60,721 bases of DNA from Chloroflexota bacterium (GCA_031431395.1 JANPDJ010000001.1:1-60721); one strand, 5' to 3'. Counted from the stretch's first letter, positions 22,076 to 48,978 are shown. Program-made: numbers and translations. Notes: generated from the letters alone by a model not told the origin.

Positions 22076-22092
22076 GACAACCCGAACCACGC

Positions 22093-22124: not shown

Positions 22125-22179
22125 CTTGCACTTCCGCGGTAGAAGCGGCCGCGCCGCAATCGACCCGAGGACCAGACCA

Positions 22180-23274
22180 GTGGACTACAAGGACTACTAC
22201 AAGACGCTCGGGGTTTCTCGCACCGCGACGCAGGCCGAGATCAAGAAGGCCTTCCGCAAGCTCGCGCGGCAGAGCCATCCGGACGTAAAGCCGGGCGACA
22301 GCACCGCGGAGCTGCGCTTCAAGGACATCAACGAGGCTAACGAGGTCCTCTCCGACCCGGCCAAGCGAACGCAGTACGATGAGCTGGGCGCGAACTGGGA
22401 GGCCTACTCGAGGGCCGGTGCGGGCAGTCCGGGCGGGGGCGGCTCCGGCGGGCCGAGCCCATTCGGGGCAGGCGGACCCTTCCAGGGCTTCGGCGGCCAG
22501 GGCGGCAGCGTCCGCTACGAGTTCCGGGGCCCGGGCGGTGGCGCCGGCGCGGAGCAGTTCAGCGACTTCTTCCGGATGTTCTTCGGCGAGCAGGCGGGCG
22601 GCGCAGGCGGCGCAGGCGGCGGCGCGGGAGCGACGGGCTCACGACGCGGCGGGGGACGAGGTCAGCGCACCCAGGCCCGCAGCGGGCCAACGATCGAAGA
22701 TCTCCTCGCAGGCGCGGGCGGCACTTACGGGACCGAACCCGGCGCGGCGCGGCCGGCGGCTGCAGAGGCCCAGGCGCAGATCACCCTCGAAGAGGCATTC
22801 CACGGCACGACGCGCCTCGTGGACGTGGATGGTCGCCGGCTCGAGGTGAAGGTGCCCGCCGGCGTGGACACCGGCAGCCGGATCCGCCTGCGTGGCAAAG
22901 GGGGCGGAACAGGCGAGGCGGCGCGCGACCTGTACATCGTGCCGAAGGTGGAATCACACCCCGTGTTCACCCGGACCGGGGCGGACCTTGCGCGTGAGAT
23001 CAGGATCACGCTGGGCGAGGCGCTCCTGGGCGGCGAGATCCCCGTGCGGACGCTCAAGGGCCGCGTCCTCCTGACGATCCCACCGGGAACCCAGCACGGG
23101 CGCACCTTCCGGCTCACCGGCCAGGGCATGCCGCGTCTCAAGGGCGAGGGCAGCGGGGACCTGTATGTCCGCGTGAGCATCGCGCTCCCCACGAACCTCT
23201 CCGACGAGGCGAAGGAGGCCGCCGCGCACTTCCTGAGCCTGGTGGATCAGCCGGATCCCCGCCCACCCGCGTGA
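22180..23274 (+). CDS. cbpA: DnaJ-class J-domain co-chaperone without zinc finger (CbpA type)
   Basis: DYYKTLGVSRTATQAEIKKAFRKLARQSHPD, a long Gly-rich region, and a C-terminal substrate-binding domain. No CxxCxGxG repeats. GTG start at 22180. Confidence 0.85.
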   Translation: MDYKDYYKTLGVSRTATQAEIKKAFRKLARQSHPDVKPGDSTAELRFKDINEANEVLSDPAKRTQYDELGANWEAYSRAGAGSPGGGGSGGPSPFGAGGPFQGFGGQGGSVRYEFRGPGGGAGAEQFSDFFRMFFGEQAGGAGGAGGGAGATGSRRGGGRGQRTQARSGPTIEDLLAGAGGTYGTEPGAARPAAAEAQAQITLEEAFHGTTRLVDVDGRRLEVKVPAGVDTGSRIRLRGKGGGTGEAARDLYIVPKVESHPVFTRTGADLAREIRITLGEALLGGEIPVRTLKGRVLLTIPPGTQHGRTFRLTGQGMPRLKGEGSGDLYVRVSIALPTNLSDEAKEAAAHFLSLVDQPDPRPPA

Positions 23275-23328
23275 CCCGCGGCGGCTCGAGGCCTGCCAGG
23301 GACCTGCGGCGGCTCGCCAAGGTGCCCA

Positions 23329-23357
23329 TTGACATTGGTAGCATCCCTGACAATACT
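23329..23357 (+). promoter_or_regulatory. Near-consensus promoter TTGACA-17-AATACT in an AT-rich island upstream of clpB
   Basis: TTGACA at 23329-23334 and AATACT at 23352-23357. This would give a ~55-nt 5' UTR ending in AGGAGG (23401-23406). Confidence 0.6.
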
Positions 23358-23419
23358 ATTGATACGTTTGGACTTGAAGATGGACCTGGGCCCACGCCTC
23401 AGGAGGTAACCACAACACC

Positions 23420-33967: not shown

Positions 33968-34324
33968 GTGACCGGGATCTGGTACATCCTTGGGTTTGCC
34001 TTCGCCGGCCTGTCGTTCGTGTTCCTCACGATCGGCGCGGCATGGCTGATCTCCCATCGGAATCGCGGCGATGTCCACAAGGGCCTGCCGTACGAGAGCG
34101 GGATCGACACGTACGGCGATCCCCACGGGCGGTTCGGCCTGTCCTTCTACATCTATGCGTTGCTGTTCGTCGCGTTCGACATCGAGGTGATCTTCATCTA
34201 CCTCTGGGCGATCGTGTTCCGCGACCTCCTGATGAGCGGCTTCGTGAGCATGCTGATCTTCGTCGCCATCCTCCTGCTCGGCCTCGCCTACGCCTGGCGA
34301 AAGGGCGTCCTCACATGGCGCTGA
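33968..34324 (+). CDS. nuoA: NADH-quinone oxidoreductase subunit A
   Basis: 118 aa, 3 TM helices. [28 protein letters not shown]. Confidence 0.92.
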
Positions 34325-35088
34325 GCGGTCCGGGGGAAGGTGCCACGGGTGATTCGGGCGGGACTCCAGAGAGCGGCGGCGGCATGACGGCCCGTGAGTC
34401 GAGCCGATCCTCCAGCCTGCCGGCCGTCATCGAGACGGGCGACTCGGCCGTCATGGAACCCATCGTGGTCCCGAACACCCTCTGGCAGTCCACCAATCCG
34501 GCCGCGTACAGCGGCGGCACGCCCACCGACATCACGCACCTCCGCGAGCTTGGGCTCACGGAGGCCATGCGCCACAACGATGCCCGCTGGGGCGCCCTCG
34601 AGGTGATCCCCACCAAGGCGGACTACGTCCTGGACCTTCTCCGCGCAAACAGCCTGTGGCCGCTCTTGTCGGGCCTGGCCTGCTGCGCCATCGAGATGAT
34701 GTCGGCGGCCACCAGCAAGAACGACATGGACCGCTGGGGCATGTTCCCGTTCCGCGCCAGCCCGCGCCAGGCGGACGTGCTGATCGTCGCCGGGACGCTC
34801 ACCACCAAGATGGCCGGGCCGCTTGTGCGGCTCTGGGAGCAGATGCCAGAGCCAAAGTGGTGCGTGGCCATGGGCGATTGCACGATCTCCGGCGGCCGGT
34901 ACAAGCGGTCCTACTCCACGGTGGAAGGCATCGACCGCGTGATGCCCGTGGACGTCTATGTCCCCGGCTGCCCGCCCCGCCCGGAGGGCCTCATCTACGG
35001 GATGATGCGGCTCCAGCAGTTGATCAAAGACCGCCGGGGTCACTGGCCCGAGCGGGCGGTCGGCCCAACCGTTCCGGATCGTGTCTAG
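34315..35088 (+). CDS. nuoB: NADH-quinone oxidoreductase subunit B (N2 cluster) with a long N-terminal extension
   Basis: [43 protein letters not shown]. Start uncertain; ATG at 34315 overlaps the nuoA end. Confidence 0.88.
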
Positions 35089-35097
35089 GCCAGCCTG

Positions 35098-35649
35098 ATG
35101 GATCGTGCGCTCAAGCTGCGCCTGGAAGCGCGCTTCACGGATCGGCTGACCGGGCCGGTGCGCCAGCGCCATGACGCGACGGAGATCCGTATCGGGGCCG
35201 GCGACGTGCCGGACACGCTGCGCACCCTCCACGACGACCCGTCGTTCCGGTTCGAGTTCCTGTCGGACCTGGCCGGCGTCGACACGGGGCTCGTCATGCA
35301 GGTCGTGTACCACCTGTGGAGCGAGACCACCTCGGACTGGCTGAGGGTCATCGCGGACGGGCTGTCGCGCGAGGATCCGCGCGTCCCTTCCATCACGTTC
35401 CTCTGGCAGGGCGCGGAGTGGATGGAACGCGAGGCCTACGACATGTTCGGCATCACGTTCGAGGGGAACCGGGACCTGCGGCGGATCTACATGCCCCCGG
35501 ACTACACGAGTTTCCCTCTCCGCAAGGACTTCTTCCTGGCCGACGATGCCGCCCGCTCGCCGGGCGCCGGCGTGCGCCACCAGGAGCAGACCCACACGCC
35601 CCGCAACGCGCCCCCGGGACGCGCCATCCGCGTGGCTAAGGAGGCCTGA
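35098..35649 (+). CDS. nuoC: NADH-quinone oxidoreductase subunit C
   Basis: FEFLSDLAGVD, PSITFLWQGAEWMEREAYDMFGITFEGN.DLRRI. Confidence 0.9.
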   Translation: MDRALKLRLEARFTDRLTGPVRQRHDATEIRIGAGDVPDTLRTLHDDPSFRFEFLSDLAGVDTGLVMQVVYHLWSETTSDWLRVIADGLSREDPRVPSITFLWQGAEWMEREAYDMFGITFEGNRDLRRIYMPPDYTSFPLRKDFFLADDAARSPGAGVRHQEQTHTPRNAPPGRAIRVAKEA

Positions 35650-36882
35650 GTGACCGCTCAACCAGGCTCCGGGACCCGCCGCGCATCCAGCGACGATCCG
35701 CGCGTGATGCTCGACATCGACGCCGGGGCGTACGAGCCGGTGCCGCCGTACCCGCCCCGCACGGAGCGTGAAGCCGAGTTCTACACGCTCGCCGACGGCG
35801 AGATGTTCGTGAACATGGGCCCGCAGCACCCCTCCACGCACGGCGTTCTGCGGGTCGTGCTGAAGCTCCGCGGCGAGCAGGTCGTGGACCTGGACCCCGT
35901 CCTCGGCTACCTCCATCGCGGCGTGGAGAAACTGGCGGAGAACGCGGACTACCACCACACCATCGCCTACATGGACCCGCTCGAGTACATCTCCTCGCTG
36001 TTCTGCGAGTGGCCGGCAGTGATGGCCTTCGAGAAGCTGCTCGACGTGGAGGTGCCCCGTCGCGCGGAGTACATCCGTGTCCTGTCCACGGAGCTGAACC
36101 GGGTCGCCAGCCATGCCCTGTTCATGGGCTGGTTCGCGCTTGACCTGGGCGGCCTGACGCCGGTCCTCTGGAGCTTCATCGAACGCGACGAGATCGTGGA
36201 GATGCTGGGCGCGCTGACCGGGGCGCGGATGCTCTTCAACTACATGCGGATCGGCGGCGTCAACGGAGATCTGAACCACGAGTTCATGAGCCGCCTGGGA
36301 GCGTGGATGAGCCGCGCCGGCACGCATATCGACTCGAACACGAAGCTGCTCAACGAGAACGAGATCTTCGTCCGCCGCTCGCGAGGTCTCGGTGTCGTGG
36401 ACCGCGAGACGGCGGTCCGGATGTGCATGACGGGACCCAACCTGCGCGCAACGGGCGTGCCATTCGACGTCCGCCGCGCACACCCCTACAGCGTGTTTCC
36501 GGAGCTGGACTTCGACATCCCCACACGGACGGAGGGCGATTCGCTCGCACGCTACCTCCTCCGCGTGGACGAGATCAAGCAGAGCCTGCGAATCATCGAC
36601 CAGTGCCTCCACCAGATGCCTGACGGCCCGATCATGGCGAAACTGCCGCGCAGGCTGACACCCCGACCCGGCCGTGCCTACGCTGCCGTGGAGAGCCCCC
36701 GGGGGCAGTACGCCGTGTACGCGATGAGCGACGGCACGGACCAGCCGTTCCGGCTGCGCATCCACGATCCCTCGTTCGTCCATCTCCAGAGCGTCGGCCT
36801 CCTGATGCCGGGCAATCTCGTCGCGGACACGATGGCGATCATGGCCTCGCTGGACCCGGTCATGGGGGGCGTGGACAAGTGA
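35650..36882 (+). CDS. nuoD: NADH-quinone oxidoreductase subunit D
   Basis: NMGPQHPSTHGVLRVVL, GYLHRGVEKL, YMRIGGV, ESPRGQYAVY, DPVMGGVDK. Confidence 0.95.
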   Translation: MTAQPGSGTRRASSDDPRVMLDIDAGAYEPVPPYPPRTEREAEFYTLADGEMFVNMGPQHPSTHGVLRVVLKLRGEQVVDLDPVLGYLHRGVEKLAENADYHHTIAYMDPLEYISSLFCEWPAVMAFEKLLDVEVPRRAEYIRVLSTELNRVASHALFMGWFALDLGGLTPVLWSFIERDEIVEMLGALTGARMLFNYMRIGGVNGDLNHEFMSRLGAWMSRAGTHIDSNTKLLNENEIFVRRSRGLGVVDRETAVRMCMTGPNLRATGVPFDVRRAHPYSVFPELDFDIPTRTEGDSLARYLLRVDEIKQSLRIIDQCLHQMPDGPIMAKLPRRLTPRPGRAYAAVESPRGQYAVYAMSDGTDQPFRLRIHDPSFVHLQSVGLLMPGNLVADTMAIMASLDPVMGGVDK

Positions 36883-36913: not shown

Positions 36914-38254
36914 ATGACGTCCGTTTCGCGCGCCTGGGGCCGGCTGACCCTGCCGGGCAAGATCATCTTCACCCTGGTGCCGCTCCTGCTGGCGATGACG
37001 GTCGGCCTGCTCGTCGCGGTGGTGCTCGTCGGGCCCTACGTCCTGCAGTTCCTGGGCGACAACCTGCCCCTCGTGCGCTTCGTCGTCGCGGCCACGGCCG
37101 TGCTCCTGATGTCGATCCCCACGGCCTTCATCATCATCTACATGGAGATGAAGGTCATCGCGCTGATGAACCTTCGCATCGGACCGGACCGCGTTGGACC
37201 CTACGGGTCGCTCCTGTCGGTGGTCCACGGGCTCAAGGTCCTCATGAAGGAGGACTTCACCCCAACCGGGGCGGATGCGCCCGTGTTCACCCTCGCGCCC
37301 GCCGTGGTCTACCTGGGCGCGGTGATGTCGCTGCTCGTGATTCCGTTCGCCCCGGGGCTCTTCGGGCAGGACTTCAACATCGGCCTGCTGTATTTCTTCG
37401 CGGTGAGCGGCCTCAGTGTCGTCGGCCTGATGATGGCCGGCTGGTCCAGCTACAACAAGTACTCGCTGCTGGGCGGCCTGCGGTCCGCGGCCCAGGTGAT
37501 CAGCTACGAGATCCCGCTCACCCTTTCGGTGGTGGGCCTGCTCCTGCTGGCCGGCACGATGAGCCTCAACACGATCGTCCTCAACCAGTCCGGCACTGCG
37601 CTCGACTGGTACATCTTCCGCCAGCCGCTGGGGTTCCTGATCTTCTTCATCGCCGCGACCGCGGAGGCCAACCGCACGCCGTTCGACCTCACGGAGGCCG
37701 ACTCGGAGATCGTCGCGGGCTTCGCCACGGAGTACTCGGGGATGCGCTTCGGGTTCCTCTTCTTCGCCGAGTACGTCGGGGTGTTCGTCGTTTCTGCGAT
37801 GACGGTGACCCTGTTCTTCGGCGGCTGGAACGCCCCCTTCAACTGGCCGTGGCCGGTCACCGCCAGTCTCGACCCGGGCAGCCTGGGCATCCTGCTACTC
37901 ATCCTGGTCGCCATCGTCCCGGTCCTTGGGACCCTGCTGTTCGCCGCGCCGTTCTGGCTGCTCCGCTCGTCGATGCCGGGCTGGCAGGCGCTGATCATCG
38001 GCTTCCTGATCTTCAATTTCGTGGCCGTGGGAGCTGTCCTCGGGTGGGCATTCATCAGCTTTGACTGGGTCGTGGGTCTGCTCTGGTTTATGCTGAAGAC
38101 CTACGGTTTCGTGTTCACCTTCGTCTGGATGCGGGGGACGTTGCCGCGCGTCCGGATCGACCAGCTGATGGGATTCGCCTGGAAATGGCTGCTGCCCGCC
38201 TCCCTGCTGAACCTGTTCGTGACGGCCGGTGCGCTCATCGTGCTGAACCGCTGA
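36914..38254 (+). CDS. nuoH: NADH-quinone oxidoreductase subunit H (long form)
   Basis: MEMKVIALMNLRIGPDRVGPYG..LKVLMKEDF, AEANRTPFDLTEADSEIVAGFATEYSGMRF. Confidence 0.92.
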   Translation: MTSVSRAWGRLTLPGKIIFTLVPLLLAMTVGLLVAVVLVGPYVLQFLGDNLPLVRFVVAATAVLLMSIPTAFIIIYMEMKVIALMNLRIGPDRVGPYGSLLSVVHGLKVLMKEDFTPTGADAPVFTLAPAVVYLGAVMSLLVIPFAPGLFGQDFNIGLLYFFAVSGLSVVGLMMAGWSSYNKYSLLGGLRSAAQVISYEIPLTLSVVGLLLLAGTMSLNTIVLNQSGTALDWYIFRQPLGFLIFFIAATAEANRTPFDLTEADSEIVAGFATEYSGMRFGFLFFAEYVGVFVVSAMTVTLFFGGWNAPFNWPWPVTASLDPGSLGILLLILVAIVPVLGTLLFAAPFWLLRSSMPGWQALIIGFLIFNFVAVGAVLGWAFISFDWVVGLLWFMLKTYGFVFTFVWMRGTLPRVRIDQLMGFAWKWLLPASLLNLFVTAGALIVLNR

Positions 38255-38312: not shown

Positions 38313-39140
38313 ATGAGCTTCATCCCCGGGATCGGGATCGCAAAGGGCATGGCCCTGACGCTGCTCCGATTCTTCCAGCCCAAGGTGACCATCCGCTACC
38401 CGGAAGTCGCCGCGGATGTCTCCCCGAAGTTCCGGGGCCGCCTGCAGCTCCTCTACGACGAGTGGGGCACGCTCAAGTGCGAGACCTGCTTCCAGTGCGC
38501 GCAGGCCTGCCCCATCGAGTGCATCGACATGGGCGGGACGGACACCAAGGGCCGGTATCACGTCCACTGGGGCGCGGCGGAAACGTACGGCGAGCGGCGC
38601 GATGAATCCGCGCTGCGGCGTTCGGGCAGGCCGGTCCCGGACGAGGCCTACAGCCACGATCAGCCCATGAATCTCGAGGCCGTGGACGCGATCCTCGCGG
38701 CGTATGACCACGATCCAGGGTCGATGCTCCAGATCCTGGGCGACGTGCAGGACACCTACGGCTACCTGCCCGTGGCGGCGCTGAAGCGGATCAGCACGTC
38801 CACCGGTGCCTGGTACGCGATGATCTACGGTACTGCGTCGTACTACCGCCATCTGCGATTCGATCCGCCGGGCCAGTCCGTCGGCATCTGCCGCTGCACG
38901 AGCTGCCTGATCAGCGGGGGTGGTCGGATCCAGGAGGCGCTGGAACGCGGGCTCCGGGCCAGCCTCGGCAAGACTCCGTTGAGCGGCGGGATCCGGCTGG
39001 AACAGCTGCCCAACCATGTCGCGGGCGCGTCATCGCCTCTCGTGATGGTCGCCGGCGAGCCCGTCGCACTGACGCCGGAAACGGCGGAGCCCTGGGCTCG
39101 TGGCCTGGCGCCACAGTCCGGCACCCGGGCACAGGCCTGA
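38313..39140 (+). CDS. Fusion protein: NuoI N-terminal half (one 4Fe-4S motif) + NuoE-like thioredoxin-fold domain
   Basis: Residues 1-88: PKVTIRYPE, KFRGRL, and C56-x2-C59-x2-C62-x3-C66-P (38478-38513). A second ferredoxin motif is absent in all frames. Residues ~118-250: YDHDPGSMLQILGDVQDTYGYLP..IYGTASYYRHLRFDPPGQSVGICRCTSCLISGG (NuoE-like). Confidence 0.8.
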   Translation: MSFIPGIGIAKGMALTLLRFFQPKVTIRYPEVAADVSPKFRGRLQLLYDEWGTLKCETCFQCAQACPIECIDMGGTDTKGRYHVHWGAAETYGERRDESALRRSGRPVPDEAYSHDQPMNLEAVDAILAAYDHDPGSMLQILGDVQDTYGYLPVAALKRISTSTGAWYAMIYGTASYYRHLRFDPPGQSVGICRCTSCLISGGGRIQEALERGLRASLGKTPLSGGIRLEQLPNHVAGASSPLVMVAGEPVALTPETAEPWARGLAPQSGTRAQA

Positions 39141-39144
39141 GGTC

Positions 39145-40476
39145 ATGACAACGCTGCTCGCCACACCGGCCGGCTGGCCGCAGATCCTGCTGGCACGAGC
39201 CAGGAAAGCCGCGCCCGTCGGCAGCCCCGGCTCGGCGACGGCGACCGGCCCGTTCGCAGGACTCCGGATCGCGATCGAGCGGCTCGGCCCGGAAGGCACG
39301 ATCAGAGCGATCGAGCAGTCGGGCCTGCGCGGCCGAGGTGGGGCAGGCTTTCCCACCGGCACGAAATGGCGCAAGGCCGCCGCCACCGAGGCATCGCGCC
39401 GGTACGTCGTCGCCAACGGATACGGCGCCGATCCGGCCGTCTCCATCGACCAGGTCCTCATGGAGCGGGACCCGTTCGGGCTGCTTGAGGGCGTCGCCAT
39501 CGCCGCGTACGCAATCGGCGCGTCCGAGGCCGTCATCGCGGTGCGCGCGGAATACGCGGAGGCCGCCCGCGGACTGGAGGCCGCCATCCTGGCGGCAGAG
39601 GCAGCCGGGTTCCTGGGCGCGGACATCCTGAGCTCGGGCGTCGATCTGACCGTCACGGTCCGGACCGTGCAGGGCGCCTACATGCTGGGCGAGGAGACGG
39701 TCCTCCTGAAGGCCCTCGAAGGCAAGCGCGGGCAGCCGGAACAGCGGCCGCCGCACCCGGCGGAGCGGGGGATGTTCGGGCAGCCCACGGTCGTCCAGAA
39801 CATCGCCACCCTGATCGCCGTCCCGTGGATCCTCGTGAACGGCGCGGAGGCGTGGCGGGCCATCGGCACGCCGGACGCACCCGGAACCGTGCTCGTCCAG
39901 GTCAGCGGCGCGGCCGCGAACGGGATCGCGGAGGTGCCCACGGGCACCACCTTGGCGCAGATCATCGACCTTGCGGGCGGCGTGGTGCCGGGCCGTCGGG
40001 TGAAGGCAGTCCTCGTCGGCGGGCCATCCGGCGGGCTCCTGCCGGCGACGGCACTGGACACCCCGTATGACTTCGGGCCGTTGCGCGCCGCGGGCGCCCA
40101 CGTGGGCTCTGGCTCCATCGTGGTCGCCGACGAGCGGACGTGCGTGGTGGACCTGGCTCGCCTCCTGACGGCGTTCTGCGCCGACGAGGCATGCGGCAAG
40201 ACCATCCCGTGCCGGATCGGGACACGCCGGATCGCCGAGATCGGGGACCGCGTGACGAGCGGTCGGCCGCGCCCCACGGACCTGCAGCTCCTGGCGGACC
40301 TCAGCCATGATGTGGTCGCGTCCGCGCTATGCGATCACGAGCGCCTGGCGACCCTTCCGTACGCCAGCGCGATGCGATACTTCCGCTCCGAGCTCGACGA
40401 CCACGTTCTCCGCAGCTCCTGCCCGGCCGGTGTCTGCCGCCCCATCGCGGTGGCCGGCGTTGCGGCGGGCTACTGA
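39145..40476 (+). CDS. nuoF: NuoF-like subunit with divergent FMN/NADH and N3-cluster signatures
   Basis: GLRGRGGAGFPTGTKW, QGAYMLGEETVLLKALEGKRGQPEQRPPHP, PTVVQNIAT. However, it has ANGYGADPAVS in place of CNADESEPGT, and C350-GK-T353-IP-C356...C396 in place of CxxCxxC...C. Confidence 0.85.
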   Translation: MTTLLATPAGWPQILLARARKAAPVGSPGSATATGPFAGLRIAIERLGPEGTIRAIEQSGLRGRGGAGFPTGTKWRKAAATEASRRYVVANGYGADPAVSIDQVLMERDPFGLLEGVAIAAYAIGASEAVIAVRAEYAEAARGLEAAILAAEAAGFLGADILSSGVDLTVTVRTVQGAYMLGEETVLLKALEGKRGQPEQRPPHPAERGMFGQPTVVQNIATLIAVPWILVNGAEAWRAIGTPDAPGTVLVQVSGAAANGIAEVPTGTTLAQIIDLAGGVVPGRRVKAVLVGGPSGGLLPATALDTPYDFGPLRAAGAHVGSGSIVVADERTCVVDLARLLTAFCADEACGKTIPCRIGTRRIAEIGDRVTSGRPRPTDLQLLADLSHDVVASALCDHERLATLPYASAMRYFRSELDDHVLRSSCPAGVCRPIAVAGVAAGY

Positions 40477-40485
40477 GGCCTTCCG

Positions 40486-43080
40486 ATGACCGATCTCGCC
40501 ATCCGACCCAGAGCCACGCTCGATCCCCTCGCGCATGCCGAGACGCTGCTGGACACCCAGGCGCCGCAGCGGCCGACGGCCACGCCCCGGATCCGGATCG
40601 AGGTGGACGGGCGCGTCGTGGAAGGCCTGGAGGGCCAGACCATCCTCGAGGTCTGTCGCGACAACGGCATCGAGATCCCCACGCTCTGCTACGAGCCCAA
40701 GCTGCCGGGCTTCGGGGCATGCCGGATGTGCGTCGTCGAGGTGGAGGGCGAGGAGCATCCGCCCATCTCCTGCTCGCGCGCCTGCGAAGACGGCATGAAG
40801 GTCCAGACGCAGACGGAAGAGGTGCGGCGCCTCCGCCGGACCAACCTCGAGCTGATCTTCAGCGACCACAACGCGTACTGCCTGCCGCCGTGCCAGAACA
40901 AGTGCCCCAGCCACATCGACATCCCGGGCTTCCTGAAGCAGAACGCGGAGGCGAACTGGCGCGAGTCCGTGCGGATCTTCAAGCGGACCATCCCGTTCCC
41001 TTCGGTCCTGGGGCGGGTCTGTCCAGCCCCGTGCGAGGAGCACTGCCGTCGCGACGAGGTGGACGAGGCGATCGCGATCCGCGACTCGCACCGATATGCC
41101 GGCGACCAGGTGATCAGGGCGATGCTCAACGAGAACGTGGACCCGCCGGTCCCGTTCGAGGTCCAGCCCCGGAGCGGACGCCGGATCGCCGTGATCGGAT
41201 CCGGGCCGGCGGGCGCCACCGCTGCGTACTACCTCCTGATCGCCGGCCACGACGTGACCATCTTCGAACGGGACCCCATGCCGGGCGGGATGCTCCGCTA
41301 CGGCATCCCGCAGTACCGGCTTCCCAAGGTGGAGGTCCTCGAGGCGGAGTACGAGGGCATCGTGCGGCTCGGCGGCCGGTTCGTGACGAACCAGGGCCTC
41401 GGGCGCGATTTCACGCTGGACGACCTGCAGAACCAGGGGTTCGACGCGGTCTGCGTCGCCATCGGCTGCTACGACACGAACAAGCTGGGGATCCCCGGCG
41501 AAGACGGCACCGGCGTCATCGACGGCCTGGACTACCTGCGCACGGCCACCCTGGGCCTCGAATACCCGGGCCACGCCGGGAGCCGCGTCGTGGTCATCGG
41601 CGGCGGCTTCACCTCGATGGACTGCACCCGCACGTCCGTCCGGCTGGGCGCGGCGGAGGTCACGCTGGTCTACCGGCGCGACATGAAGGACATGCCCGCC
41701 TCCGACGAGGTGCACGAGGCCATCGAGGAAGGCGCCACGGCGATCTTCCAGGCGGGCCCGGTCCGGATCGTGACCGACGCCACCAACACGGTCACGGGCG
41801 TGGAGTTCATCCGGATGAAGCTTGGCGAGCCGGATGCGTCCGGTCGCCGCCGCCCGGAGCCTGCCCCCGGTACCGAGTTCACGATCCCGTGCGACCGCGT
41901 CCTCCTGGCCATCGGCCAGGGCCCGGACCTGACATGGATCGGCCCCGGCTCCGATGGACCGAAGGCCAGCAAGCAGCGCCGCCTCGTTGCCGACGCGGTC
42001 ACCTTCGAGACCGGACGGCCGGGTGTCTTCGGCACAGGTGACGTGCGCATCGGCGCGGCGACCGTCGTGCAGGCCATCGCGGAGGGCCGCCGGGCCGCCT
42101 ATGCCGTGGATGCGTACGTCAAGGGCCTGGACCTGGCCGCCATCCGGACCCGCCAGACGCTGGCCGAGCCCCAGCCCGAGTTCCTGTCCATCGTGCCGTT
42201 CACCAGCGAGATCAAGGAGCCCCGCATCCGCCTGAAGAAGATGGAGGCGGAGGCCAGGAATCGCAGTTACATCGAGTACGAGATCCCCTACACGCGGGCC
42301 GAGGCGGTCGCGGAGTCCACGCGCTGCCTCCAGTGCACCTGCGAGGCGATCGGCTTCTGCGACCTGCGGCGGCTGGGGATCGAGTACGGCACAACCCTTG
42401 CGACGCTCGAGCCGCACCACAACTCCGGTGCAGGCTACCGCTCCGTGACCGAGAACCGGTTCACCGGCTACAACCACGACTACATCCGCGATGACTCACA
42501 CGCGTTCATCCTGCGCGAGCCGTCCCGCTGCATCGACTGCGGCCGTTGCGCGCAGGTCTGCTCGGAAGTGGTGGGCGCGGCCTGCTACGACTTCATGCGG
42601 ATCGGCTTCGACACCCTGGTGACGACGCCGCTGGATATGAGCCTCAACGACACGCCGTGCGTCTCGTGCGGCCGCTGCGCCGAGACCTGCCCCACGGGCG
42701 CGCTCATGCCCAAACCGCGGGTGCTGCAGAAGTACGAGGTCGACGAAAGCCGCTGCATCCTGTGCGGCATCTGCGTGGACGCCTGCCCGTATGACGCGCT
42801 CCGCGACAGCACGGAATTCGAGCTGTCCCACGAGTCGCGGGCAGAACCCATGATCGACCTGCTGTCCTACTCCGCCGTCAACCAGGAGACGGAAGTCACG
42901 TACATCCGGCGCGAGCGCGACTGGGCGGAGCGCGCCATGGCGGACGGCCGGCTGCTGGACACCGGACGCCTGCTGCCGATGCTGCCGGCGTCCATCGCGA
43001 ACGGCAACGGGAATGGACATGGCAACGGCCACGCGCACGACCACGGAGGCGCGGGCGCCACCGCGGGGCGGCACAAGTAA
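40486..43080 (+). CDS. Chimeric Fe-S flavoprotein: NuoG-type 2Fe-2S N-terminus + GltD-like FAD/NAD(P)H domain + 2x[4Fe-4S] region + NuoI C-terminal half
   Basis: - 2Fe-2S: TLCYEPKLPGFGACRMCVVEV...SC.
- GltD part: SDHNAYCLPPCQNKCPSHIDIPGFL, GRVCPAPCEEHC, IAVIGSGPAGATAAYYL, GGMLRYGIPQYRLPK, VVVIGGGFTSMDC, VFGTGDV.
- 2x[4Fe-4S]: RCIDCGRCAQVC and CVSCGRCAETCPTGAL.
- NuoI-like end: KYEVDESRCILCGICVDACPYDAL..FEL...DLL.
- No molybdopterin-like NuoG body. Confidence 0.85.
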   Translation: MTDLAIRPRATLDPLAHAETLLDTQAPQRPTATPRIRIEVDGRVVEGLEGQTILEVCRDNGIEIPTLCYEPKLPGFGACRMCVVEVEGEEHPPISCSRACEDGMKVQTQTEEVRRLRRTNLELIFSDHNAYCLPPCQNKCPSHIDIPGFLKQNAEANWRESVRIFKRTIPFPSVLGRVCPAPCEEHCRRDEVDEAIAIRDSHRYAGDQVIRAMLNENVDPPVPFEVQPRSGRRIAVIGSGPAGATAAYYLLIAGHDVTIFERDPMPGGMLRYGIPQYRLPKVEVLEAEYEGIVRLGGRFVTNQGLGRDFTLDDLQNQGFDAVCVAIGCYDTNKLGIPGEDGTGVIDGLDYLRTATLGLEYPGHAGSRVVVIGGGFTSMDCTRTSVRLGAAEVTLVYRRDMKDMPASDEVHEAIEEGATAIFQAGPVRIVTDATNTVTGVEFIRMKLGEPDASGRRRPEPAPGTEFTIPCDRVLLAIGQGPDLTWIGPGSDGPKASKQRRLVADAVTFETGRPGVFGTGDVRIGAATVVQAIAEGRRAAYAVDAYVKGLDLAAIRTRQTLAEPQPEFLSIVPFTSEIKEPRIRLKKMEAEARNRSYIEYEIPYTRAEAVAESTRCLQCTCEAIGFCDLRRLGIEYGTTLATLEPHHNSGAGYRSVTENRFTGYNHDYIRDDSHAFILREPSRCIDCGRCAQVCSEVVGAACYDFMRIGFDTLVTTPLDMSLNDTPCVSCGRCAETCPTGALMPKPRVLQKYEVDESRCILCGICVDACPYDALRDSTEFELSHESRAEPMIDLLSYSAVNQETEVTYIRRERDWAERAMADGRLLDTGRLLPMLPASIANGNGNGHGNGHAHDHGGAGATAGRHK

Positions 43081-43154: not shown

Positions 43155-43691
43155 TTGGCGATCCCGTCAACCGTGCCGTTCATCGGGCTGAGCTGGGACG
43201 ACGTGCTGTTCCTGCTCTTTGCGACCACGATGATCGGGACGGCTCTGCTTGTCGTGTCGATGCGCGACATCATTCGCTGCGGCCTGGCGATGATGGCGTC
43301 ATTCGGCGCACTCGCCGGCATCTACGTCCTGCTGGGCGCCCCGCTCGTGGCTGCAGCCCAGGTACTGATCTACATCGGCGCCATCGCGGTTCTCATCCTG
43401 TTCGCCATCATGCTCACCCAGTCGAAGGCCGCGCCCGCCCGCCTCGTGTTCCAGACGCAGGCAGTTCCGGCCGGCATCGCCGCCGTGATCCTCGCCGTGG
43501 TCATCGCATTGACGGTCACGGCCACGGACTGGGGCGCGGTCACGAGCCGCCTCGGCACCGCGACGGACGAACTTGCGAGGCTGCTCTTCCGTGACTACGT
43601 GCTGCCGTTCGAGATCGTCAGCGTCCTGCTGCTGGCCGCGGTCATCGGCGGGGTATTCCTCGCGAAGCGCGAGGAAGGCGGGCCGCAATGA
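43155..43691 (+). CDS. nuoJ: NADH-quinone oxidoreductase subunit J
   Basis: TTG start after a purine-rich SD. AAAQVLIYIGAIAVLILFAIML, FEIVSVLLLAAVIG. Confidence 0.88.
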   Translation: MAIPSTVPFIGLSWDDVLFLLFATTMIGTALLVVSMRDIIRCGLAMMASFGALAGIYVLLGAPLVAAAQVLIYIGAIAVLILFAIMLTQSKAAPARLVFQTQAVPAGIAAVILAVVIALTVTATDWGAVTSRLGTATDELARLLFRDYVLPFEIVSVLLLAAVIGGVFLAKREEGGPQ

Positions 43692-43999
43692 GCAACTCGC
43701 TCGACGCCTACCTCGTGCTGTCCGGGATCATCTTTGCCATCGGCACATTCGGCTTCCTGGCGCGCCGGAACGCCATCAGCATGCTCATGTCCATCGAACT
43801 CATGCTGAATGCCGTCAACCTCGCGATCGTCGCGTTCGGGTCGTTCGTGGAGGCGCTCAGGACGGCGTCCTCCGTCATCGCACTGATCGTGATGGCCGTC
43901 GCGGCGGCGGAAGCCACCGTGGGCCTCGCGATCGTGATCGCCATCTACCGCAACCGCCGCACGCCGCTGGTCGATGAGTACGACACGCTGCGCCAGTAA
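43688..43999 (+). CDS. nuoK: NADH-quinone oxidoreductase subunit K
   Basis: 103 aa. MLMSIELMLNAVNLA, AAAEATVGLAIVIAIYR. ATGA overlap with nuoJ. Confidence 0.92.
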   Translation: MSNSLDAYLVLSGIIFAIGTFGFLARRNAISMLMSIELMLNAVNLAIVAFGSFVEALRTASSVIALIVMAVAAAEATVGLAIVIAIYRNRRTPLVDEYDTLRQ

Positions 44000-44014: not shown

Positions 44015-45964
44015 ATGGAGACCCTGATCCCGCTCATTCCGGCCCTGCCCCTGGCCGGGTTCGTCTTCACCGGGCTGTTCGGCCGGCGGCTGGGCAAGCG
44101 CGCCTCACTCGTGCCCGTGCTTGCGGTCGTGGCCTCCTGGATGATCGCCATGGTGGTCGTCTACAACGCGCTCACCGGCTCGGGCGCCTTCGCGGGCGGC
44201 CAGGGCGTGGAGGTCCACCTCTGGAACTGGATCCCGGCGGGCGCGTTCCAGGTCCAGTTCGGCTTCTACGCGGACAACCTCACGGCCTGCCTCCTGATCG
44301 TGGTCACCACGATCGGCATGCTCGTGCACGTCTACTCGCTCGGATACATGAGCCACGACCCCGGGTACTGGCGCTTCTTCGCCTACCTGAACCTGTTCAT
44401 GTTCTCGATGCTGCTCCTGGTCCTCGCGGACAACTTCCTGCTCGTATTCGCGGGCTGGGAGCTGGTGGGCCTGTCCAGCTACCTGCTCATCGGGTTCTGG
44501 TACCGCAGGCGGTCGGCCGCCCTTGCCGCCAAGAAGGCCTTCATCGTGAACCGCGTCGGAGACGTGGGGTTCGCCCTGGGGATCATGGCGATCTTCGTGT
44601 CGCTGGGCACGCTCAACATCCGCGAAGTCATCGAGCGGATCGGCACCCTCGACCACACTCAGATCACGGTGATCGCCCTGCTGCTCTTCGCGGGCGCCAT
44701 GGGCAAGAGCGCCCAGTTCCCGCTCCACGTGTGGCTCCCGGACGCGATGGAGGGCCCCACGCCCGTGTCCGCCCTGATCCACGCGGCGACGATGGTCAAC
44801 GCGGGCGTCTACCTGGTGGCCCGGGCGAACCCGATCTTCGCCCACGCGCCGGAGGCGATGGTGGTGGTCGCGGCCGTCGGCATCTTCACCGCAATCCTGG
44901 CCGCGTCCATCGCGTTCACCCAGACCGACATCAAGCGTGTGCTCGCGTACTCCACGCTGAGCCAGCTGGGCTACATGTTCGCCGCGCTCGGCGTGGGAGC
45001 ATGGACGGCGGCCATCTTCCATCTCATGTCGCACGGCTTCTTCAAGGGCCTGCTGTTCCTTGATTCGGGCTCGGTGATCCACGCCGTGGACGGGGAACAG
45101 GACATGCGCCGGATGGGTGGACTGCGCCGCCGGATCCCCATCACGTACGCGACGATGTTCATCGGGTCCGTGGCCATCTCCGGCATCCCACCCCTCGCCG
45201 GTTTCTTCAGCAAGGACGAGATCCTGGGCGAGGCCTTCAAGAACGGCTTCCTGTGGGTCTGGGCCATCGGCCTCCTCGTGGCTGGCATGACGGCGTTCTA
45301 CATGTTCCGGCTCATGGGCCTCACGTTCTGGGGCAAGAGCCGCGTGGACCCGGCCGTCGAGCCGCACATTCATGAGTCACCGCGATCCATGACCCTGCCG
45401 CTGCTCGTCCTGGCCGTCCCGAGCGTCCTCCTCGGCCTGGCGATCGGCTGGCCCCTCGGGAGCGGCCAGCTCCGCACCTGGCTCGAGCCCGTGTTCCACG
45501 AAGCGGTGGAGCTCGCGGCGCGCCCGGAAGCCGCGTATGCCTTCTTCGGGGTTGACGGCGCCCTCCTGATCACGAGCGTCGCCGTGGCCACCCTGGGAAT
45601 CATCGGCGCGTGGGCGCTCTTCGGACTCGAGCTCCCGGGCATCCGGCGCGCCGGCAACCCGGATCGCGTCCGCAGCCTCGCGGGCCGGATGCCGTTCCTG
45701 TACCGCGCGTCGCTCAACAAATGGTGGTTCGACGAGCTCTACGACCTCCTGTTCATCCGCATCGGCGGCCGGATCGCGGCCTTCCTCTGGTGGTTCGACC
45801 GGGCGGTGGTGGACGGAACGGTGAACGGCGTGGGGGCGCTCACCGCGGACGCCGGGCGCGGCCTGCGGCGCTTCCAGACCGGCCACGTGCAGAACTACGC
45901 CCTCGGCATCGCGATCGGCCTGATCGTCATGGCGGGCGGCTATCTCGTGATTGCGGGGCGGTAG
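44015..45964 (+). CDS. nuoL: NADH-quinone oxidoreductase subunit L
   Basis: FAGWELVGLSSYLLIGFW, GKSAQFPLHVWLPDAMEGPTPVSALIHAATMV, and a C-terminal lateral-helix region. Confidence 0.95.
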   Translation: METLIPLIPALPLAGFVFTGLFGRRLGKRASLVPVLAVVASWMIAMVVVYNALTGSGAFAGGQGVEVHLWNWIPAGAFQVQFGFYADNLTACLLIVVTTIGMLVHVYSLGYMSHDPGYWRFFAYLNLFMFSMLLLVLADNFLLVFAGWELVGLSSYLLIGFWYRRRSAALAAKKAFIVNRVGDVGFALGIMAIFVSLGTLNIREVIERIGTLDHTQITVIALLLFAGAMGKSAQFPLHVWLPDAMEGPTPVSALIHAATMVNAGVYLVARANPIFAHAPEAMVVVAAVGIFTAILAASIAFTQTDIKRVLAYSTLSQLGYMFAALGVGAWTAAIFHLMSHGFFKGLLFLDSGSVIHAVDGEQDMRRMGGLRRRIPITYATMFIGSVAISGIPPLAGFFSKDEILGEAFKNGFLWVWAIGLLVAGMTAFYMFRLMGLTFWGKSRVDPAVEPHIHESPRSMTLPLLVLAVPSVLLGLAIGWPLGSGQLRTWLEPVFHEAVELAARPEAAYAFFGVDGALLITSVAVATLGIIGAWALFGLELPGIRRAGNPDRVRSLAGRMPFLYRASLNKWWFDELYDLLFIRIGGRIAAFLWWFDRAVVDGTVNGVGALTADAGRGLRRFQTGHVQNYALGIAIGLIVMAGGYLVIAGR

Positions 45965-45967
45965 GCA

Positions 45968-47506
45968 ATGGACATCACCGGCCTGCCGATCCTGACGCTG
46001 ATCACCTTCGCGCCGCTGGTGGGGGCGATCCTCATCGCGTTCATCCCGCGAAGCAGCGCCGGCCTGGTCCGGGCAACGGCACTGGGGACGAGCCTTGTGT
46101 CGTGGGCGCTGTCGCTGTTCCTGCTCGTTGGTTTCCTGCCCTCGCACCCGAACTTCCAGTTCGTGGAGCGGGCGGACTGGATCTCCGCATTCGGGATCCA
46201 GTACAAGCTTGGCGTTGACGGCCTCTCGCTCGTCATGGTGGTTCTGACCACCACGCTCACGTGGATCTCGATCCTCGCCAGCTTCGGGCCGATCAAGGAA
46301 CGGGTGAAGGAGTACATGATCTCCTTCCTCATCCTCGAGGTCGGCATGCTCGGCGTGTTCGTTGCCCTCGACCTGTTCCTCTTCTACATCTTCTTCGAGA
46401 TCGTTCTCGTGCCGATGTACCTGATCATCGGCATCTGGGGCGGGGCAAACCGCATCTACGCGACGATCAAGTTCGTCCTGTACACGCTGGTGGGCTCTCT
46501 GCTGATGCTGGTGGGCATCCTGGCCACCGCATTCGCCTTCCAGGCGGCGCACGGGGGCAACTGGGCGGGAGCCTTCGACTACGAGACGCTGCGCCAGTTC
46601 AGCTTCGACAGCACCCTGCAGTTGTTCGCATTCCTCGCCTTCTTCCTGGCGTTTGCGATCAAGATCCCGATGTTCCCGTTCCACACGTGGCTGCCCGACG
46701 CCCACGTGGAGGCTCCCACCGCCGGCTCCGTGATCCTGGCGGGGGTTCTCCTCAAGCTGGGTGGATACGGGTTCATCCGTTTCGCGGTTCCGCTCTTCCC
46801 CGAGGCCGCCCATACCTACGCGCCGGCGATCATCCTGCTGAGCGTCATCGCGATCATCTACGGGGCCATCGTGGCTCTCGTCCAACCAGACCTGAAGAAG
46901 CTGGTGGCCTATTCATCGGTCAGCCACATGGGCTTCGTGACGCTGGGCATCTTCGTGTTCCAGGAGCAGGGACTCCAGGGCGCGATCCTGCAGATGGTCA
47001 ACCACGGGCTGATCACGGGCGCGCTGTTCCTCCTCGTCGGGGTGCTCTACGAGCGGACCCACGACCGGACGATTGCGAAGATGGGCGGGCTTTCGGCGCA
47101 GATGCCCGTCTATGCCGTCGCCTTCGGGTTCTTCATGCTGGCCTCGGCCGGGTTGCCCGGGCTCTCCGGCTTCATCGGCGAGTTCCTCGTCTTCGTGGGC
47201 TCCTTCGCGTATTCCCCGGCCGTCGCGGCAGCGTCAACGATCGTGATGGTCTTTGCCGCCGGGTACCTGCTCTGGATGTTCCAGCGGATGTTCTTCGGCG
47301 AACTGTCTGACTTCTTCAAGAACGCCATCGGCCACCTCGACGACCTGCGGCCGACGGAAGTGCTGACGCTGGTCCCGCTCGGCGTGCTGGTTGTCGTCTT
47401 CGGCCTGTTCCCGGGCCTCCTTCTCACGCTTGTCCAGGGCACGGTCACGGAGGTGCTCCACGGCGCCGCACAGGCGAGCGCCATCAACCTGGCGTTCTGG
47501 CAGTAG
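45968..47506 (+). CDS. nuoM: NADH-quinone oxidoreductase subunit M
   Basis: FYIFFEIVLVPMYLIIGIWGG, KIPMFPFHTWLPDAHVEAPTAGSVILAGVLLK. Confidence 0.95.
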   Translation: MDITGLPILTLITFAPLVGAILIAFIPRSSAGLVRATALGTSLVSWALSLFLLVGFLPSHPNFQFVERADWISAFGIQYKLGVDGLSLVMVVLTTTLTWISILASFGPIKERVKEYMISFLILEVGMLGVFVALDLFLFYIFFEIVLVPMYLIIGIWGGANRIYATIKFVLYTLVGSLLMLVGILATAFAFQAAHGGNWAGAFDYETLRQFSFDSTLQLFAFLAFFLAFAIKIPMFPFHTWLPDAHVEAPTAGSVILAGVLLKLGGYGFIRFAVPLFPEAAHTYAPAIILLSVIAIIYGAIVALVQPDLKKLVAYSSVSHMGFVTLGIFVFQEQGLQGAILQMVNHGLITGALFLLVGVLYERTHDRTIAKMGGLSAQMPVYAVAFGFFMLASAGLPGLSGFIGEFLVFVGSFAYSPAVAAASTIVMVFAAGYLLWMFQRMFFGELSDFFKNAIGHLDDLRPTEVLTLVPLGVLVVVFGLFPGLLLTLVQGTVTEVLHGAAQASAINLAFWQ

Positions 47507-47514
47507 GGGCGGGC

Positions 47515-48978
47515 GTGAGCGCGGCTGATTTCTCCACCATTTCGCCCGTCGTCGCGGCCGTTCTTGTCGCGGCCGCGATTCTTCTCGTCGACATCGTGCG
47601 GCCGGGTTCGCGCACCCTGGCCATCGCCACGTCGCTCCTGGGTCTCGCGATCGTCGCGGCGGTCGTCCTCTGGGCGGGCCAGTCCACGGCCGACGCGTTC
47701 GACGGGGCCTACCGGCAGGACGCGCTGACCACCTTCCTCGACCTGCTGTTCGTGGCGATCGTGGCGTTCACGATCGTCTTCGCCCCGGACTACCTGGAGT
47801 CGCGCGATCTGCCCTTCGCGGAGTTCGCGGCGGTCCTCGTGTTCGCCATGACGGGCGCGATGCTCCTCGCGGCAGCGTCCGACCTCCTGGTGCTCTTCCT
47901 GGGCCTCGAGTTGATGGTCATCCCGGGCTATCTCCTTGCCGGATTCGCCAAGCGGGACGCACTCTCGACTGAAGGCGCCATCAAGTACTTCCTCCTCGGG
48001 TCGTTCTCGTCGGCCATCTTCCTGTTCGGCCTTGTGTTCACCTGGGGGCTGACGGGCTCCACCCGGATCGATGACGTTGCCCGGCATCTCACGGACATGC
48101 TCTCGGGCGGAGCCTCGATGTCGGCCGGGCTCGCGATGGGCCTGGCGTTCATGACCACGGGCGTCGCCTTCAAGATCGCGGCCGTGCCGTTCCACTACTG
48201 GACGCCGGACGCGTACCAGGGCTCACCGACACCCATCACCGGCTACCTCTCCGTGGGCCCGAAAGTGGGCGCATTCGCCCTCATCCTGCGGCTGTTCATC
48301 GGGGCGCTGGATCCGCTGAAGACCGACTGGTTGCCGGTCATGGAGATCCTCGCCGCGCTCACGATGACCATGGGCAACCTGGTCGCCCTGACACAGAGCA
48401 ACGTCAAGCGGATGCTGGCGTACTCGTCGATCGCGCACACCGGCTACATCCTCGTCGGTCTGGCTGCGTATGCCGCCGGCCGGATCGAGGGCCTGGAGGG
48501 CGTGCTGTTCTACGCCGCGGCCTACACGTTCATGAACCTGGGGGCGTTCGCCGTTGTCGCGGCGCTGCAGCGGCGGCCCGGCGTCACGTCGCACCTGGAC
48601 ACGTTCGCAGGACTCGGCCGCCGCGAGCCCATCCTCGGCGTTCTGATGACGCTGTTCCTGCTGTCACTCACGGGGATACCGCCGCTGGCCGGCTTCTTCG
48701 GCAAGGCCTACGTCATCCTGGCGGCTGTCCAGGCGGGCGGCACGCTGACGATCCTTGCGGTCATCGCCGTCCTCAACGCGGCGGCGGCGGCCTTCTACTA
48801 CCTGCGCGTCGTCGTCTACATGTACATGCGCGAGCCCACGTCGGAAGCCGAGCCGCCGAAGCACGGATCCCTCGTCTGGGCGGGCCTCTGGGCGGCCAGC
48901 GCGCTGACGATCGCGATCGGTGTGTTCCCGGGACCGCTGCTCGACGCCGTCCACCACGCGGCACTCGCCCTGCCGTAG
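47515..48978 (+). CDS. nuoN: NADH-quinone oxidoreductase subunit N
   Basis: FLGLELMVIPGY, FKIAAVPFHYWTPDAYQGSPTPITGYLS, KRMLAYSSIAHTGY. GTG start. Confidence 0.93.
   Translation: MSAADFSTISPVVAAVLVAAAILLVDIVRPGSRTLAIATSLLGLAIVAAVVLWAGQSTADAFDGAYRQDALTTFLDLLFVAIVAFTIVFAPDYLESRDLPFAEFAAVLVFAMTGAMLLAAASDLLVLFLGLELMVIPGYLLAGFAKRDALSTEGAIKYFLLGSFSSAIFLFGLVFTWGLTGSTRIDDVARHLTDMLSGGASMSAGLAMGLAFMTTGVAFKIAAVPFHYWTPDAYQGSPTPITGYLSVGPKVGAFALILRLFIGALDPLKTDWLPVMEILAALTMTMGNLVALTQSNVKRMLAYSSIAHTGYILVGLAAYAAGRIEGLEGVLFYAAAYTFMNLGAFAVVAALQRRPGVTSHLDTFAGLGRREPILGVLMTLFLLSLTGIPPLAGFFGKAYVILAAVQAGGTLTILAVIAVLNAAAAAFYYLRVVVYMYMREPTSEAEPPKHGSLVWAGLWAASALTIAIGVFPGPLLDAVHHAALALP

Follow-up and report, generated by a model that had tools for sequence, protein, structure and literature searches.

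Respiratory complex I is, to our knowledge, usually seen as NADH-specific or, in its 11-subunit forms, as ferredoxin-dependent, and use of NADPH has been obtained only by engineering. Among soluble enzymes, StnC and NfnA have been described as fusions of a GltD-like and a NuoG-like part, with NADPH bound at a non-bifurcating FAD (PMC10482914, PMC12018979, PMC11829005), and a lysine conserved in all NfnABC enzymes is the fourth ligand of their cluster A7/C7 (PMC12018979, PMC10482914). Electrons follow the path FAD-A7-A6-A3-A2-A1-B1-FMN in NfnABC (PMC11829005, PMC10482914), and a side branch, A2-A4-A5, leads into the Fdh-like domain, being a dead end in NfnABC and functional in FdsABG (PMC11829005). 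A connection between the Bfu family and complex I, Nuo-Bfu, was predicted by Schut et al. (2022), with Bfu-type NuoEFG in Geobacter, Deferribacteres, Planctomycetes and Nitrospirae (PMC9304861), and Degli Esposti (2015) reported gltD-like proteins in place of NuoI in mbx-like operons. Here we analyze a 60,721-nucleotide stretch of DNA from a Chloroflexota bacterium (GCA_031431395.1, JANPDJ010000001.1:1-60721; hereafter the window), in which the open reading frame at 40486-43080 encodes an NfnA/StnC-like subunit of 864 amino acids (aa) that is fused to the C-terminal half of NuoI and for which we use the shorthand G*. Based on profile, sequence, and fold comparisons, which are computational throughout, this protein is probably the subunit through which electrons enter a variant form of respiratory complex I, in which a split NuoI would join a module of NuoE-like, NuoF-like, and G* subunits (E-F-G*) to the quinone module.

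From the sequence alone, the first-pass annotation of the window had proposed a NuoG-type Fe-S subunit with a GltD-like FAD/NAD(P)H domain nested inside it, and matches from Pfam, the Protein Data Bank (PDB), and Foldseek bear this out. All motifs that it quoted, including LIFSDH, VFGTGDV, and AIAEGRRAA, were found where it had placed them, within a single frame on the plus strand (Table 1), and its interval 40864-42129 corresponds to aa 127-548; the in silico rearrangements described below place the module at aa 134-617. In comparisons with PDB sequences, NfnA from Caldicellulosiruptor (9bov_A, E 4e-161) and StnC from Sporomusa (8oh5_C, E 2e-144) both aligned with aa 36-767 of G*, and NfnA from Thermococcus (9n5u_A) was also among the best matches. 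An AlphaFold2 model of G* (mean predicted local distance difference test score, pLDDT, 73.8; above 90 over the flavin core) retrieved the three NfnA/StnC proteins as top Foldseek matches, with template modeling (TM) scores of 0.65-0.66 and a best E of 2e-67, followed by NfnL, GltD, and DPD. These matches lie well outside the range of chance. The comparators named in the first pass (NfnB, GltD, and Bfu large subunits) were well chosen. By these comparisons, the nested architecture itself is not new, being that of NfnA/StnC.

An assembly or annotation artifact, whether two merged genes or a frameshift, has practically no chance of accounting for the frame, and the unusual domain order is all that would speak for it. 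Because more than 120 independent, full-length protein clusters of 855-930 aa match the 864-aa protein (81-91% identity, 95-100% coverage) and the same gene and neighbors recur in 83 of 83 loci, the frame is not a merge, which the first pass had named as a finding that would refute its reading; moreover, the same nested order is seen in the solved structures.

The module is not only nested but also circularly permuted. It runs from a helical domain with two [4Fe-4S] clusters through the FAD fold, the NADPH fold, and a linker to its own N-terminal 40 residues, which end in RCLQC. With these residues (aa 578-617) moved in front of aa 133-548, the de-permuted construct matches GltD profiles end to end: TIGR01318 is covered at positions 7-464 of 467 with 329 bits (48-464 in native order) and TIGR01316 at positions 3-449 of 449 (36-449 in native order), with both scores rising on de-permutation. 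The "second GltD-N-terminus-like stretch" of the first-pass annotation therefore duplicates nothing: the module has this one N-terminus only, which permutation has carried to its end, and a duplication is ruled out by this test. Furthermore, in silico removal of aa 134-617 leaves HNAYCLTCEAIGFC, which is exactly HxxxCxxCxxxxxC, and raises the score against PF10588, the NuoG His-cluster profile, from 20.1 to 40.4 bits (cut-off 27). The protein without the module aligns in one stretch with HydA, NiFe-BfuA, FdsA, Aquifex NuoG, and the mitochondrial 75-kDa subunit. Taken together, de-permutation and excision show that the GltD module, in circularly permuted form, separates ligand 2 of the His-ligated cluster from ligand 3.

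The designation of the subunit as NuoG-type holds for its N-terminus, which is of the HydA/NuoG type, but not for its other end, where the C-terminal domain of NuoG is absent and the protein closes with half of NuoI. The ferredoxin-like domain before this half aligns with HydA, FdsA, and NuoG. In terms of sequence, G* is an NfnA/StnC-type (BfuA) subunit whose Fdh-like C-terminal domain, as found in NfnA/NuoG, is replaced by the C-terminal half of NuoI. Assignments of G* as PRK12814/SfrB, NuoG, or GltD were rejected, as each curated cut-off was missed; for TIGR01317, G* scored 222 bits (237 after de-permutation) against a cut-off of 447.7. It does not have the form of a stand-alone GltD of about 470 aa, and there is no gltB adjacent to its gene.

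Across 30 aligned sequences, distant relatives among them, the predicted cofactor-site residues of G* vary little or not at all. Invariant in this alignment are the N-terminal [2Fe-2S] cysteines (Cys 68, 79, 82, and 96) and the predicted ligands of the His-ligated cluster (H128, C132, C619, and C625). The GltD-type clusters would be bound by C614, C617, C136, C140, C179, C183, and C187 together with His202, and the ferredoxin-type clusters by Cys 682-692 and Cys 725-735. Neither the two dinucleotide folds (GSGPAG...FE for FAD and GGGFTS...VYRR for NADPH) nor the GD motif varies across the clade to which the window belongs, so that the flavin domain does not lack binding residues, which the first pass had named as evidence that would speak against its proposal. 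In line with that proposal, these motifs and the match to StnC, which was solved with NADPH, argue that the subunit has its own pyridine-nucleotide/FAD site. His202 (41089-41091) occupies the fourth ligand position of the flavin-proximal cluster A7 in the window clade as well as in a clade from Thermoleophilia (see below), and it recurs in a Por/TPP-fused relative of 1049 aa (P0250); Lys is found at this position in 13 of 13 aligned relatives that have an Fdh domain or are short, without the NuoI half. At 42970-43077, G* has a Gly/Asn/His-rich low-complexity end (NGNGNGHGNGHAHDHGG...), for which metal binding is one possibility, and its relatives have similar but variable His-rich low-complexity tails.

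What went unnoticed in the first pass is that nuoI is split and that the E-F-G* trio is placed within it. Residues 9-84 of the 275-aa protein encoded at 38313-39140 match positions 1-66 of the 121-position NuoI model of NCBIfam (TIGR01971), and aa 742-789 of G* match positions 71-114. Joined in silico, the two halves are colinear with TYKY residues 23-88 (N-terminal half) and 99-144 (C-terminal half). In the N-terminal half, LKCETCFQCAQACPIECIDMGG is invariant in 47 of 51 relatives. The halves lie about 3.6 kb apart on two genes, one combined with a NuoE-like domain and the other at the end of G*, and NuoI is broken at the loop that separates its two cluster motifs; along the sequence, the C-terminal half stands where NfnA has its A5/Fdh cluster motif. 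There is no intact nuoI between nuoH and nuoJ, and no other copy of NuoI, E, F, G, D, or H was found in the window. Since the complementary halves flank E-F-G*, the trio therefore lies inside a split nuoI, and the gene order reads nuoA-B-C-D-H-[I(N)::E]-F-[G*::I(C)]-J-K-L-M-N. All 10 of the remaining subunits (NuoA, B, C, D, H, J, K, L, M, and N) score above their Pfam thresholds, and the nuoB product carries the tandem-Cys motif CCAIEMM together with GDC and GCPP, as expected of a subunit that ligates cluster N2. It is this context that appears to be new, namely an NADPH/FAD subunit in a complex I whose NuoI is split around E-F-G*; in the literature on Limnocylindria, Nuo-Bfu, and Thermoleophilia/Chloroflexota complex I, coverage of which was incomplete, no description of the present arrangement was found.

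The best PDB matches of the NuoF-like flavoprotein are StnB (8oh5_B, E 4e-106, residues 124-527 of 584) and HydB, with NuoF of complex I behind (9e-86), and it corresponds to a relative of Bfu-B (StnB/HydB) without the N-terminal thioredoxin-like and C-terminal 2x[4Fe-4S] domains. Across the clade, it retains GLRGRGGAG and GAYxLGEET, its NADEGDPGAFMDR loop is remodeled to NGYGADPxxxxD(R/Q), and its N3-type motif reads FCAxEACGKTIPC throughout, with one ligand shifted. In the window itself, this motif (aa 356-377, numbered from 39100) is FCADEACGKTIPC in place of SCGKCxPC, the middle Cys being changed to Thr and a new Cys standing five residues upstream, which looks like a ligand swap. The NuoE-like part keeps its helical N-domain, and its thioredoxin-like half is without the second Cys pair of the [2Fe-2S] site, reading LPNHVAGASSP where ECLGAC is expected. 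This loss is stepwise: the window and locus L001 retain the thioredoxin-like half without the second Cys pair, and in most relatives from Limnocylindria (L056, L070, L039, L008, and others), whose proteins have 219-253 aa, the half is wholly deleted. Thus, with the thioredoxin-like/2x[4Fe-4S] domains of BfuB and cluster C1 of BfuC absent, the Bfu flavobicluster core (B1-FMN-C1) is incomplete in the window. At L025 and four other loci, open frames of 676-725 aa hold NuoI(N)::NuoE in frame with the NuoF-like gene and without a stop codon, which points to a three-part fusion protein unless it stems from a sequencing error.

In a scan with one genome per species, at least 492 species-level genomes were found to encode a relative of the junction region, and the best 80 of these are all metagenome-assembled genomes (MAGs) from Limnocylindrales/Chloroflexota. 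The 83 loci, which stem from different projects, share the same gene order as far as each contig extends. Expressed as median identity to the window across the clade, G* (83.8%) is conserved to a similar degree as NuoD (82.4%), and every other subunit of the operon exceeds the NuoF-like one (65.5%); within G*, the values are 98.6% for the ferredoxin domain, 93.2% for the GltD cluster domain, 92.5% for the 2Fe-2S domain, and 82.6% for the flavin core. The GltD-bearing subunit is therefore among the most conserved of the operon, in a clade in which the NuoE cluster is lost and NuoF is conserved least.

Clustering at 50% gathered the G* family in one cluster, and the next relatives (at most 46% identity) are of the Fdh type or the SfrB type. 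The exception is P0151 (42% identity), which carries the same NuoI tail and belongs to a family of more than 120 clusters from MAGs of Thermoleophilia (Actinomycetota). Three loci of this lineage (L002, L003, and L084) have the same operon order and the same nuoI split, and for each of the 13 subunits, identity across the two phyla lies at 28-55%. In Thermoleophilia, the NuoE part retains the [2Fe-2S] cysteines (CHGTAC...CVGAC), and NuoF (L002 and L084) is a full Bfu-B of 636-638 aa with the N-terminal thioredoxin-like ([2Fe-2S]) and C-terminal two-cluster 2x[4Fe-4S] domains. The YRR motif, which is conserved in the window clade and common to the NADPH-binding StnC and NfnA, is absent in P0151 (L002) and present in L084.

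Table 1. Features of the variant nuo operon and of G*. Positions are those of the window and residues those of the 864-aa G* protein, unless another locus or protein is named.
Feature	Position	Strand	Residues	Remarks
G* gene	40486..43080	+		one intact 864-aa open reading frame holding the GltD-like module
Fer2_4 (Pfam)			35-110	E 5e-21
[2Fe-2S] HydA/NuoG-type N-terminal domain, cluster A1/N1b	40588..40866	+	35-127	Cys 68, 79, 82, 96
NADH-G_4Fe-4S_3 (Pfam)			117-133	partial: first 17 positions of the NuoG His-cluster profile
LIFSDH			123-128	
His-ligated [4Fe-4S] motif (cluster A3/N5), first half	40867..40881	+	128-132	H128-x3-C132
CLPPCQNKCPSHIDIPGFL			132-150	
Fer4_20 (Pfam)			132-209	
Nested, circularly permuted GltD/NfnL-like module	40885..42336	+	134-617	
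GRVCPAPCEEHC			176-187	
Flavin/nucleotide core	41167..42129	+	228-548	FAD fold GSGPAG...FERD, NADPH fold GGGFTS...VYRR, GTGD
Pyr_redox_2 (Pfam)			233-534	E 3e-27
IAVIGSGPAGATAAYYL			234-250	
GGMLRYGIPQYRLPK			267-281	
VVVIGGGFTSMDC			368-380	
VFGTGDV			514-520	
AIAEGRRAA			530-538	
YTRAEAVAESTRCLQC			602-617	
His-ligated cluster motif, second half	42340..42360	+	619-625	C619-x5-C625
Fer4_Nqo3 (Pfam)			675-740	
Ferredoxin-like 2x[4Fe-4S] domain, clusters A2 and A4	42511..42720	+	676-745	CIDCGRCAQVC and CVSCGRCAETCP; Pfam Fer4_Nqo3, Fer4_7
NuoI C-terminal half	42721..42870	+	746-795	YEVDESRCILCGICVDACPYDALRDSTEFELSHESR
Fer4 (Pfam)			750-773	
C-terminal tail	42871..43080	+		one predicted helix and Gly/Asn/His-rich end; low pLDDT
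NuoI N-terminal half	38313..38537	+	1-75 of the 275-aa protein	N-terminal helix and first cluster motif CETCFQCAQACP
Conserved linker/insert between NuoI N-terminal half and NuoE-like part	38538..38648	+	76-112 of the 275-aa protein	GRYHVHWG...ETYGERR...RRSGRPVPD; median 84% identity in the clade
NuoE-like part	38649..39140	+	113-275 of the 275-aa protein	Pfam 2Fe-2S_thioredx E 5e-19
NuoF-like flavoprotein	39145..40476	+		Pfam Complex1_51K and NADH_4Fe-4S; open from 39100, likely start ATG 39145
nuoA	33968..34324	+		Pfam Oxidored_q4 E 2e-31
nuoB	34333..35088	+		Pfam Oxidored_q6 E 8e-27; start codon uncertain
nuoC	35098..35649	+		Pfam Complex1_30kDa E 2e-36
nuoD	35650..36882	+		Pfam Complex1_49kDa E 5e-85; quinone-site motifs GPQHPSTHG, GYLHRG
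nuoH	36914..38254	+		Pfam NADHdh E 3e-103
nuoJ	43155..43691	+		Pfam Oxidored_q3
nuoK	43688..43999	+		Pfam Oxidored_q2
nuoL	44015..45964	+		Pfam Proton_antipo_N/M/C
nuoM	45968..47506	+		Pfam Proton_antipo_M
nuoN	47515..48978	+		Pfam Proton_antipo_M
Thermoleophilia split-nuoI locus, L002	7330-10004			
Thermoleophilia split-nuoI locus, L084	7311-9994			

Among the other subunits, NuoH is long (446 aa), with the 298-position Pfam profile spread over residues 62-438, implying insertions relative to a typical NuoH; in Thermoleophilia, NuoH has 371-375 aa. The remaining genes of the window are ordinary housekeeping genes (PurH, amino-acid permeases, a peptide-binding protein). An AT skew of +0.15 to +0.21 at 19292-26152 covers genes for a Lon protease and a ClpB-type chaperone, and Rfam and tRNA scans of the 60-kb window gave no match.

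As to function, we consider it most likely that the assembled complex would act as a proton-pumping NAD(P)H:quinone oxidoreductase in which NADPH has an input of its own. The two halves of NuoI would re-form its two-cluster fold and thereby bolt the E-F-G* module to the quinone module. Electrons would then pass from NADPH to FAD and on through A7, A6, the His-ligated A3, A2, and A4, from there through N6a/N6b in the split NuoI and N2 in NuoB to the quinone, and this flow would drive proton pumping by NuoH/L/M/N. The proposed outlet is the A2-A4 branch, not the His-ligated cluster used in canonical complex I, and the path is drawn through A4 because the C-terminal half of NuoI takes the place of the A5 motif and pterin domain at the same sequence position. 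At the NuoF-like FMN site, NADH might enter as a second input by way of B1 and A1; alternatively, this site could be mainly structural in the window clade. A bifurcating Bfu enzyme was rejected for the window itself: because the NuoE cluster C1, which is part of the published minimal site, the ferredoxin-binding domain of NuoF, and the B3/B4 sites are missing, this enzyme should not bifurcate. The Thermoleophilia version, with its complete Bfu core, could possibly be a bifurcating-type head on complex I. A possible rationale for NADPH input would be a larger driving force, given that both phyla use menaquinone and that NADPH forms a more reducing pool in the cell than NADH does. More tentatively, we suggest a proton-pumping NADPH:menaquinone oxidoreductase whose Nfn-Bfu module was inserted in the hairpin loop of NuoI, with the head acquired independently of canonical NuoEFG and the electrons leaving by the dead-end branch of NfnABC, while in Thermoleophilia one machine could link NADH, NADPH, and ferredoxin with quinone and the proton gradient.

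The same assembly might also run mainly to produce NADPH, either by reverse flow from quinol to NADP+ driven by the proton-motive force or as a membrane-anchored transhydrogenase from NADH/FMN to FAD/NADP+. The nearest characterized enzymes, StnABC and NfnABC, are reversible transhydrogenases with a chain linking FMN and FAD, both nucleotide sites are present in one complex, and the Thermoleophilia version retains every Bfu cofactor site. However, in the window clade, the NuoF-like subunit is the least conserved of the operon and its NADEGDPGAFMDR loop is remodeled, the sites on which Stn-type coupling depends (C1 and B3/B4) have been lost, and the lineage is described as consisting mostly of respiring heterotrophs, which need a quinone-reducing complex I. 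We therefore regard this role as rather unlikely, although the direction cannot be read from the sequence because complex I is reversible in principle. It is quite improbable, too, that the GltD module is a structural or regulatory relic in an ordinary NADH:quinone oxidoreductase fed through the NuoF-like FMN site. While the GLRGRGGAGF loop, GAYxxGEET, and four Cys that could hold an N3-type cluster remain in the NuoF-like subunit, and the 2Fe-2S domain that would link it to the chain is highly conserved (92.5% median identity), the GltD module is itself among the best-conserved parts of the operon, with invariant FAD, NADPH, and cluster ligands, and the parts in decay are the NuoF-like and NuoE-like ones, the N1a site of the latter being lost or deleted. 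Highly improbable, finally, is a soluble Stn/Nfn-like enzyme that is merely encoded within the nuo operon and has no physical link to complex I; the similarity in sequence and fold to soluble NfnABC/StnABC would agree with it, but these very genes carry the only NuoI of the operon, as two halves that complement each other exactly, both phyla have the arrangement as a fixed feature, and the Fdh-like domain that mediates NfnA oligomerization is absent.

Several points weigh against an NADPH-fed complex I with a split NuoI. The model of G* is not confident past aa 745, and AlphaFold2 modeling of the two NuoI halves joined as one chain, from the single sequence, gave an uninformative model with a pLDDT of 37; both the assembly of the subunits and the formation of one fold from the two halves are thus presumed from sequence. 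We infer specificity for NADPH rather than NADH solely from the conserved YRR and the homology to StnC, and His202 replaces the A7 lysine conserved in all characterized NfnABC enzymes. Furthermore, the search for NuoI spans the window, so that a second canonical nuo operon or a separate nuoI may exist elsewhere in the genome, and all genomes with the arrangement are uncultured MAGs.

If the proposed complex is real, a natural, dedicated NADPH/FAD entry would recast the link between reducing power and respiration in Limnocylindria and Thermoleophilia, two abundant, mostly uncultured lineages of soil and freshwater. It would also provide an example of modular evolution, in which a soluble bifurcating enzyme was captured by a membrane pump via a split two-cluster ferredoxin subunit and then lost cofactors stepwise, with intermediate stages extant for comparison. 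Moreover, a function of the "dead-end" A2-A4 branch of NfnA, as proposed here, would become directly testable. The system may thus be of interest for bioenergetics as a variant of complex I and of the Bfu family alike.

With the canonical 14-subunit complex I (NuoA-N/Nqo1-14), the operon has in common all quinone-module and membrane subunits, the N2 and quinone-site motifs, and proteins related to NuoE/F/G. It differs in that NuoI is in two pieces, with the two CxxCxxCxxxCP motifs on separate polypeptides, and in that the E-F-G genes lie within nuoI instead of between nuoD and nuoH. Moreover, both the molybdopterin-fold C-terminal domain of NuoG and the N1a site are missing, there is an additional predicted FAD/NADPH site, and the outlet to NuoI would be an A4-type cluster that NuoG lacks, not N5. 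PRK12814/SfrB-like proteins (NCBIfam NF009454) have the same order of 2Fe-2S domain and nested GltD module, matched over model positions 4-631, but G* reaches 559.4 bits against a cut-off of 916, and the members have about 650 aa and no NuoI half. GltD, NfnB/NfnL, and the N-terminal module of DPD share the fold (TM 0.78-0.81, normalized to the target) and all cofactor motifs, whereas the module of G* is circularly permuted and embedded, with no GltB or NfnS partner nearby; the fourth ligand proximal to the flavin is His in G*, Lys in NfnABC/StnABC, Glu in NfnL, and Gln in DPD.

The closest relatives are NfnA/StnC (NfnABC 9BOV/9BP5 from Caldicellulosiruptor, StnABC 8OH5 from Sporomusa, and NfnABC 9N5U from Thermococcus), with 36-41% identity over about 715-730 residues. 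Common to them and G* are the N-terminal [2Fe-2S] domain, the site of the GltD module in the His-ligated motif, the FAD and YRR motifs, and the ferredoxin-like domain. Unlike them, G* has neither an Fdh/NuoG-like pterin-fold domain nor A5, is NuoI-like from aa 746 onward, and has His for Lys at A7. Its partner subunits differ from those of NfnABC in being without C1, B2, and B3/B4, which leaves the published minimal bifurcation site (B1-FMN-C1) incomplete, and its genes are embedded in a nuo operon, unlike those of soluble Nfn/Stn. Nuo-Bfu, in turn, was described as a 14-gene A-N operon with BfuABC genes in mid-operon replacing nuoEFG, from other phyla and with no mention of a GltD/NADPH module or a split NuoI (PMC9304861). 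The likeness to the present operon lies in a Bfu-derived module that would feed a proton-pumping Nuo core, and it extends in the Thermoleophilia loci L002 and L084 to a full Bfu-B.

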